Of a DNA stretch of 18,130 nt, positions 118-483 are shown one piece after another (positions within the stretch are counted from its first letter, which is position 1; every line of letters begins with the position of its first letter). A program made the translations under genes and the position numbers. This DNA is from a virus (lineage: Duplodnaviria > Heunggongvirae > Uroviricota > Caudoviricetes): the IMG/VR virus record IMGVR_UViG_2671180283_000002, positions 1-18,130 of that record. One strand, given 5' to 3'. Below the pieces are notes generated by a model. The model saw nothing but the letters and a program-made list of their open reading frames with translations. It was not told the DNA's origin and made no database searches.

Positions 118-292
118 CCAACTCCGGGAGCCGTGATTATGGCATTCAGGCTCTGCTAAAAATGCCAGATAACATTCCGGCCTCCCCTGATTCAGGTTAT
201 AAATGACACAATATCTTGACAACACCCGTCACTGTCTGTCAGAAAATATACCGCCAGGCATAAGTATCATGTGAAATCCAACTATCCTTCTG

Positions 293-335
293 AGCCAGCA
301 CCTCTCCACCGAAAGTCAGTGCTGGCTGTTTTTTT
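293..335 (+). terminator. Plus-strand hairpin plus T7 tract, 3' end of candidate small transcription unit A
   Basis: AGCCAGCAC (293-301), 17-nt loop, GTGCTGGCT (319-327), then GTTTTTTT. Oriented against the late operon. Confidence 0.5.
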
Positions 336-442
336 CCTTAATAAAGCATCTGTAACTGAAACAATCCGCATATTGATAATATATTGACAGGCATCATTGC
401 TGTCTGTGAAAAATAAGTCTCTACAAACATATAAGGCCTTTT

Positions 443-483
443 AGCCAGCGTCTTCTTTCAGGTCAGTCGCTGGCTCTTTTTTT
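443..483 (+). terminator. Plus-strand hairpin plus T7 tract, 3' end of candidate small transcription unit B; abuts the nanS-p stop codon
   Basis: AGCCAGCG (443-450), 17-nt loop, CGCTGGCT (468-475), then CTTTTTTT. Same architecture as unit A with compensatory stem changes (AC/GT versus G/C). Confidence 0.5.

Follow-up and report, generated by a model that had tools for sequence, protein, structure and literature searches.

We identify positions 205 to 483 of the window (the whole stretch of 18,130 nucleotides that was analysed) as the pasA locus of a lambdoid prophage; this is, with high confidence, the best explanation of the interval as a whole, the first of its two tandem units (unit 1) being pasA itself. 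The locus has already been published as PasA and as EcOnc51/EcOnc52 and is not a discovery. What goes beyond the literature is its organization as a tandem pair of paralogous units and the apparent recombinant nature of the related gene PasC, a refinement for specialists. PasA belongs to the best-connected accessory-genome sRNAs in the Hfq interactome of EPEC, and both EHEC and EPEC carry several copies of it, so that a correct annotation of this spacer is useful; RefSeq annotates nothing in it, and Rfam 15 has no model for it. Tentatively, and at somewhat less than even chances, we read the pasA locus further as a tandem cluster of two sRNA genes, in which unit 2 would be a gene of its own of ~65 nt with its own seed and PasC would have arisen by deletion. 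If such a cluster is real, unit 2 would be present wherever the two-unit spacer occurs, in about 670 of 5426 complete E. coli genomes and often in several copies each, and the published view that tandem duplication played no part in the Pas genes would be contradicted.

The left end of the window is the minus-strand late region of a lambdoid prophage, and both units are contained in the 447-bp spacer between nanS-p, whose 3' end is convergent with both of them, and the holin gene S (Table 1). The preliminary description of this DNA had placed two plus-strand units convergent to nanS-p and antisense to the late operon, an arrangement confirmed here from the ORFs and the annotations. The nanS-p/S spacer was found with 96.7 to 98.9% identity in phages H-19B, 434, and YYZ-2008 and in many Stx1a phages. 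In the curated record of phage 434, terminators are predicted at the equivalents of window positions 317-335 (+), 464-486 (+), and 82-118 (-), the first two matching the terminators of units 1 and 2. Upstream of nanS-p, in late-operon orientation, lies a copy of PasD2 identical to that of E2348/69 at 171/172 nt. With the Rfam model of STnc100 (RF02076) it reached 41.3 bits, short of the gathering score of 47, the STnc100-like match spanning 2418-2622 (-). This copy completes the published set in the window, which therefore has the published order PasD2, sialate esterase nanS-p, PasA, and holin S.

Table 1. Features of the pasA locus and its surroundings in the window.
Feature	Positions	Strand	Description
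Class II holin gene S, 5' end	1-37	-	ATG at 37-35, MEKITTGVSYTT...; RefSeq and phage 434 annotations agree
Promoter-like region, unit 1	193-247	+	ATATCTTGACA-N10-CTGTCTGT; TTGACA at 216-221 is the likely -35
pasA gene	251-335	+	Equivalent of E2348/69 PasA, 743499-743415; 85-nt Hfq-dependent sRNA
236-nt minor PasA isoform, extent	251-486	+	Minor end 743264 mapped through the alignment; read-through of terminator 1
pasA intrinsic terminator (unit 1)	293-335	+	Arms 293-301/319-327, 9 bp, stem AGCCAGCAC/GTGCTGGCT; 17-nt loop; T7 at 329-335
Unit 2 box, candidate second promoter	373-414	+	ATATATTGACA-N10-CTGTCTGT-GAAAAAT
Unit 2 RNA segment	417-483	+	Diverged PasA/PasC paralogue; ~64-67 nt if it has its own start; putative 5' end
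Unit 2 intrinsic terminator	443-483	+	Arms 443-450/468-475, 8 bp, stem AGCCAGCG/CGCTGGCT; 17-nt loop; T7 at 477-483; adjoins the esterase stop codon
nanS-p, SASA-family sialate O-acetylesterase	485-2335	-	616-aa ORF; RefSeq: SASA family carbohydrate esterase
PasD2 copy	2422-2592	-	Upstream of nanS-p

Several other elements were seen in and around the spacer. A strong intrinsic terminator in late-operon orientation (83-119, minus strand), with an 11-bp stem followed by TTTTTGTTTT, precedes the Shine-Dalgarno sequence of holin S by ~30 nt and is also annotated in the phage 434 record; it would block transcription not modified by Q from reaching the lysis genes. The lambda cIII thermoregulator element (Rfam RF01804) was matched over its full length at 16798-16856 (+) with 88.5 bits, which confirmed a lambdoid early-left region at the opposite end of the window. 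Insertions of the IS629/IS3 family recur within the spacer (L005, which is Sakai Sp4, L079, L105, and L106), either between the units, within the pasA hairpin, or within the unit 2 body, and this recurrence suggests that the nanS-p/S spacer is an insertion hot spot. The ORFs 271-387 (+), 45-206 (+), and 338-430 (-) were considered as coding sequences and rejected, with no convincing coding signal; the minus-strand ORF, of 30 aa, stays open in L117 and L100, but its changes are mostly non-synonymous in the sequences as read by eye.

The identification of unit 1 is anchored in EPEC E2348/69, where PasA has been mapped to 743499-743415, on the strand opposite the esterase E2348C_0688 and the holin E2348C_0689 (Pearl Mizrahi et al. 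2021, PMC8550237, Table S6). There it was found by RIL-seq, validated by northern blotting, and shown to be destabilized without Hfq; the same table gives a major form of 85 nt and a minor form of 236 nt ending at 743264, and names EcOnc51 and EcOnc52 as the EHEC homologues (PMC8550237). In our alignment the window is collinear with prophage PP2 of E2348/69, with 93.9% identity over 205-483, and the published northern probe of PasA is the exact reverse complement of window positions 302-326 (25/25). Over the same interval, 205-483, prophage Sp12 of E. coli O157:H7 Sakai shows 100% identity with the window. The two EHEC homologues are Hfq-CRAC peaks of that strain (Tree et al. 2014, Mol Cell, Table S2), and both match the window with 100% identity, EcOnc51 (Sp12) at 279-355 and EcOnc52 (Sp4) at 418-495.

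For the homology search we used a covariance model (R1) made from 16 distinct PasA/PasC alleles of other loci, with all sequences of the window and all unit 2 sequences excluded, and ran it over the whole 18-kb window with filters off. Unit 1 was recovered at 251-335 with 108.3 bits (E = 8.6e-19). Three features of the PasA/PasC family were found for the units, namely homology, a location by the esterase and holin on the opposite strand, and a 3' stem-loop with a U-tract. As for the seed, the sequence proposed for PasA, GCCAGCACCU (Pearl Mizrahi et al., Fig. S5, PMC8550237), occurs at 294-303 in unit 1 only, while unit 2 has GCCAGCGUCU, like PasC. Two nearly equally common alleles, PasA and PasA-2, which differ in the first ~40 nt, have been reported by Zhu, Shabalina, and Storz (2026, bioRxiv), who also described the esterase-PasA-holin synteny and traced PasA and PasC to a common origin. 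The pasA of the window differs from the E2348/69 allele at 14 of its first 42 nt, and the window carries the second major allele, probably of the PasA-2 class. Among the viral contigs sampled here, both alleles occurred about equally often (~36 each).

Published work has established that PasA exists, along with its strand, size, Hfq dependence, and partners, on sequences identical or nearly identical to the one analysed, and the expression of its own pasA is predicted from strains with an identical or 94% identical sequence. Within those terms, the earlier interpretation of the two units as small RNA genes is supported by the published PasA and EcOnc51/EcOnc52 data. The transcripts that it expected to end at 335 and 483 have counterparts: the former in the published 85-nt PasA, the latter in the 236-nt minor form, which ends at the second terminator. 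Other known prophage sRNAs did not fit. No Rfam family matched 205-483 at the gathering threshold or at E up to 5, so the locus is not AgvB, AsxR, Esr41, or STnc100. The AgvB and AsxR models (RF02702/RF02703) did not match anywhere in 1-3000, even with E allowed up to 5, and that of STnc100/PasD (RF02076) gave none within 205-483, its lone STnc100-like match being the separate PasD2 gene. AsxR was also rejected because it has been published as lying at another site, 282 bp downstream of stx2AB.

Compared with each other, units 1 and 2 are 85% identical over 102 aligned positions (z of ~10 against shuffles) and are thus the direct repeats that had been described. The box TTGACA-N10-CTGTCTGT is exact in both, at 216-239 and 384-407 (TTGACA at 216-221 and 384-389). 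With up to two mismatches allowed, it matched the 18-kb window three times, where 0.18 matches were expected, and 0/200 shuffles reached three. Its exact pattern was found in 70/70 two-unit loci retrieved through the esterase anchor. Conservation along the units is uneven. Among divergent loci, unit 1 differs by 0 to 9% in the box segment, 20 to 29% in the RNA body, and 2 to 7% in the hairpin (Fisher p = 6e-8), and the corresponding values for unit 2 in three divergent lineages are 2 to 7%, 14 to 18%, and 0 to 7% (Fisher p = 0.005).

The plus-strand hairpins, each with a 17-nt loop and a T7 tract, are located where they had been placed, and the isolated terminators folded better than shuffled controls, with z scores of -2.8 (unit 1) and -5.0 (unit 2). 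The compensatory changes that had been read from their stems are present, but between the units they amount to exactly one pair, A-U versus G-C at stem position 8. Over 16 distinct hairpin alleles of the family, 95.8% of the cells form standard pairs, and changes on both sides occur in three of the nine stem pairs: position 7 (C-G/U-A), position 8 (G-C/A-U), and the closing position 9, where there is one covarying cell and where 5/16 alleles are unpaired. The observed covariation score was reached by no shuffle, and slid controls collapsed. This supports selection on the hairpin, which is expected for an intrinsic terminator and implies nothing more specific. A bidirectional function of these terminators was rejected because there is no U-run after the hairpins on the minus strand.

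Unit 2 is a diverged tandem paralogue of the PasA/PasC family, since R1, built from alleles of other loci, matched it at 404-483 with 34.1 bits (E = 4.6e-5). At E < 0.1 the model found nothing in the 18-kb window beyond 251-335 and 404-483, the next matches being the reverse strands of the hairpins at E >= 0.15. A second paralogous unit is mentioned neither by Pearl Mizrahi et al. (2021) nor by Zhu, Shabalina, and Storz (2026). The latter found the pasA copies at least 22 kb apart and held that they are not products of tandem duplication, an exclusion that follows from a search that left unit 2 uncounted. Unit 2 supplies a second terminator, at which a minority of the pasA transcripts end as the published 236-nt isoform, and in the published data RNA over unit 2 is also bound to Hfq. 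For an independent start of unit 2 we see about an even chance. If it does fire alone, the Pas family would gain one member with a different seed, and copy surveys based on BLAST coverage would have undercounted.

That unit 2 is an independently transcribed third member of PasA/PasC, a ~65-nt sRNA starting at 417-420 from its own TTGACA box, is a reading that we place just short of an even chance. The box is kept together with its spacing to (G/A)AAAAT, and the unit has the same gene-like profile as pasA, with a conserved box, a variable body, and a conserved hairpin. The sequence becomes variable from ~416 on, where transcription would be expected to start, and 418 is the first position of EcOnc52. 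With areas of 1.03M and 1.09M, the EcOnc52 and EcOnc51 peaks are similar in size, and in Sakai Sp4, where an IS629 separates the units 20 nt upstream of the unit 2 TTGACA, the peak is still assigned. However, CRAC reads from this region are multi-mapping: Sakai has several copies of the spacer, so that the assignment of EcOnc51 and EcOnc52 to Sp12 and Sp4 is uncertain and may itself be a product of multi-mapping. In EPEC, the RIL-seq entry of unit 2 is sRNA-like, with chimeras carrying its 3' end in the sRNA position, but the chimeric fragments number 119 and 54 in the two growth conditions against 4983 and 116 for PasA, numbers that agree with a minor product of read-through. Unit 2 also lacks ~14 nt that surround the mapped PasA start in unit 1, and the conservation of the box may serve a minus-strand promoter or reflect recent common ancestry.

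The other reading, also possible but with chances somewhat below even, takes unit 2 as a decayed duplicate without a promoter of its own, acting as a back-up terminator that shields the esterase from antisense transcription. It agrees with the authors of the transcript mapping, who read the region as a 3' extension in the 236-nt PasA isoform (PMC8550237), and with the small number of EPEC chimeras that map to unit 2; the existence of single-unit loci (PasC type and AGCCAGTAC type) also indicates that the second unit is dispensable. A hairpin alone would suffice for this role, yet conservation within the unit is highest in the box 60 nt upstream, which is also retained in orphan copies of unit 2, and the Hfq occupancy of unit 2 in EHEC is similar to that of unit 1. 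HnrS, which is 66 nt long, multicopy, and encoded in a prophage late region, was rejected as a candidate for unit 2; it equals EcOnc10-12 and lies ~3.2 kb off in Sp12, outside the window. In positions 46-92.7 kb of the Sakai plasmid pO157, there was no orphan unit 2 that might coincide with a plasmid EcOnc peak.

Loci were collected in two independent ways, through the box and through the esterase 3' end, and fell into four architectures. Two units (a PasA-type hairpin followed by unit 2) were found at ~70 loci, a single unit of the PasC type at ~26, a single unit with the stem AGCCAGTAC/GTACTGGCT at ~9, and a short spacer of the Stx2-phage type, with no unit and only a 3' arm remnant, at ~66. 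In L127 and 65 other viral-contig loci, which look like the Stx2-phage type, the esterase-holin spacer measures ~170 nt and lacks both units; all that is left of them is a sequence similar to the 3' arm with its T-tract, TTGACTGGCTCACTTTTT, and a different minus-strand terminator precedes S.

PasC combines the box and 5' body of unit 1 (30/36 nt identical to PasA) with the stem and esterase junction of unit 2, and in the two-unit locus L069 the hairpin of unit 2 is exactly that of PasC. From this combination of a unit 1-type 5' part and a unit 2-type 3' part, we infer that PasC looks like a deletion chimera of the two units.

Of 5426 complete E. coli genomes, 680 contain the 279-bp spacer, with a median of 4 occurrences each, and nothing is annotated beneath it. 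A box scan of one genome per species yielded 17 matches, with a real locus in Escherichia albertii only; the other 16, in unrelated taxa, are about the number estimated to occur by chance for 18 specified bases, and at one genome per species the scan yields no deeper phylogeny. Orphan copies of unit 2 were also seen at ~100 plasmid places, including L219 (NZ_CP051000.1, 3440-3700), on E. coli plasmids of ~90 kb. These copies are 93 to 94% identical, have the box intact, and lie among IS fragments together with a short remainder of the esterase 3' end; the break comes directly after the pasA T-tract.

Plus-strand transcription against the late operon would, as we propose, start near 251 and stop at the pasA terminator (293-335), and its product would be an RNA of ~85 nt, bound by Hfq and destabilized in its absence. 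PasA would then act in trans through base pairing, its seed GCCAGCACCU lying within the 5' arm of the terminator stem, a position that Zhu et al. called unusual. The RIL-seq targets of PasA carry CUG(A/U)UGCUGG, with listed sites in ftsB, frr, and the 3' end of the neighbouring esterase mRNA. By number of interactions PasA ranks 12th in the EPEC RIL-seq network, with 41 recorded partners, most of them elsewhere in the genome. We observed that the seed core CCAGCACC at 295-302 is repeated at 508-515, inside the 3' end of nanS-p, which creates a perfect 8-nt complement on the esterase mRNA; the E2348/69 equivalent of this site is among the listed sites of the PasA target motif. Duplex prediction for PasA or unit 2 RNA against the esterase 3' end yielded long duplexes that were uninformative. 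No physiological function of PasA has been demonstrated in the literature.

We consider it unlikely that the main role is in cis, as an antisense RNA or through convergent transcription against the nanS-p/S late transcript, whether by damping a leaky holin in lysogens or by cleavage of the late mRNA, like lambda OOP RNA. Both units are antisense and fully complementary to the sole transcript that reaches S, late-sense RNA over 238-256 is present in the EPEC RIL-seq data, and the esterase 3' end is a recorded partner of PasA. However, Stx2-type phages with the same esterase and holin have neither unit, so the units are not required for lysis control, and the location of most of the 41 partners also speaks against a main role in cis. 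Such a role would be compatible with action in trans, which we retain as the proposed mode of PasA.

The promoter of pasA departs from the standard pattern. No standard -10 follows TTGACA at 16 to 18 nt in a promoter scan, as the first reading of the sequence had correctly noted, and the published 5' ends of PasA and PasC both lie 30 nt past the end of TTGACA. The -10 of unit 1 would be non-canonical, either TGtCAGAAA (extended, with an 18-nt spacer) or GAAAAT at 242-247 (with a 20-nt spacer), and it is in this sense that we infer the promoter assignment. Northern data cited by Zhu et al. suggested that the mature 5' end of PasA arises by processing of a longer transcript. PasA is condition dependent in EPEC (PMC8550237), and an activator may therefore be involved in its transcription.

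On the minus strand, back to back with the plus-strand TTGACA box and overlapping it, there are sigma-70-like sites, CAGACA-17-TATATT at 378-406 (9/12 matches in the promoter scan) and, in unit 1, CAGACA-17-GATATT at 212-240. It is very unlikely that the conserved box is primarily a minus-strand promoter towards S, with its plus-strand -35 likeness secondary: such a promoter accounts for both conserved halves of the box (ATAT.T and CTGTCTG), and the site at 378-406 has a better -10 than any plus-strand option, but the mapped 5' ends of PasA and PasC belong to the plus strand and keep a fixed distance from TTGACA, the two promoter-like sites in the region compare with 0.9 expected in shuffles, the strong terminator at 83-119 (-) would end such transcripts before S, and no Hfq peak is listed on the minus strand of the spacer.

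The closest known system is PasA of E2348/69 PP2, which has the same position between a SASA esterase and a class II holin on the antisense strand, with identical promoter box, terminator, seed, T-tract, and second terminator giving the 236-nt form; it differs in the first ~40 nt of the RNA body. PasC of prophage PP5 in the same strain has the stem AGCCAGCG/CGCTGGCT in common with unit 2, as well as the junction TTTTTTTATTATGCTGCC to the esterase stop codon. However, PasC does not look like the same gene as unit 2, being a single unit with a promoter and 5' body of the unit 1 type, whereas unit 2 has its own box and a different, shorter 5' body. EcOnc51 and EcOnc52 are 100% identical to the window and are both flagged with a Rho-independent terminator, but they were listed as orphan Hfq-binding peaks and not as a tandem gene pair. 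The anti-sRNAs AgvB and AsxR are likewise short, Hfq-bound, terminator-ended RNAs of a prophage late region, encoded antisense to the late transcript, and their 3' part is conserved while the 5' part varies; in contrast to PasA, for which no sponge activity is known, they are located downstream of stx/Q and not between esterase and holin, and they had no sequence or structure match in the Rfam scans. As for the arrangement in tandem, the transcription of the second unit on its own is here a candidate only, and the likeness is to OmrA/OmrB and PrrF1/PrrF2, which are likewise pairs of neighbouring paralogues whose ends are conserved and whose bodies have diverged, every unit having a promoter-like box and a terminator of its own.
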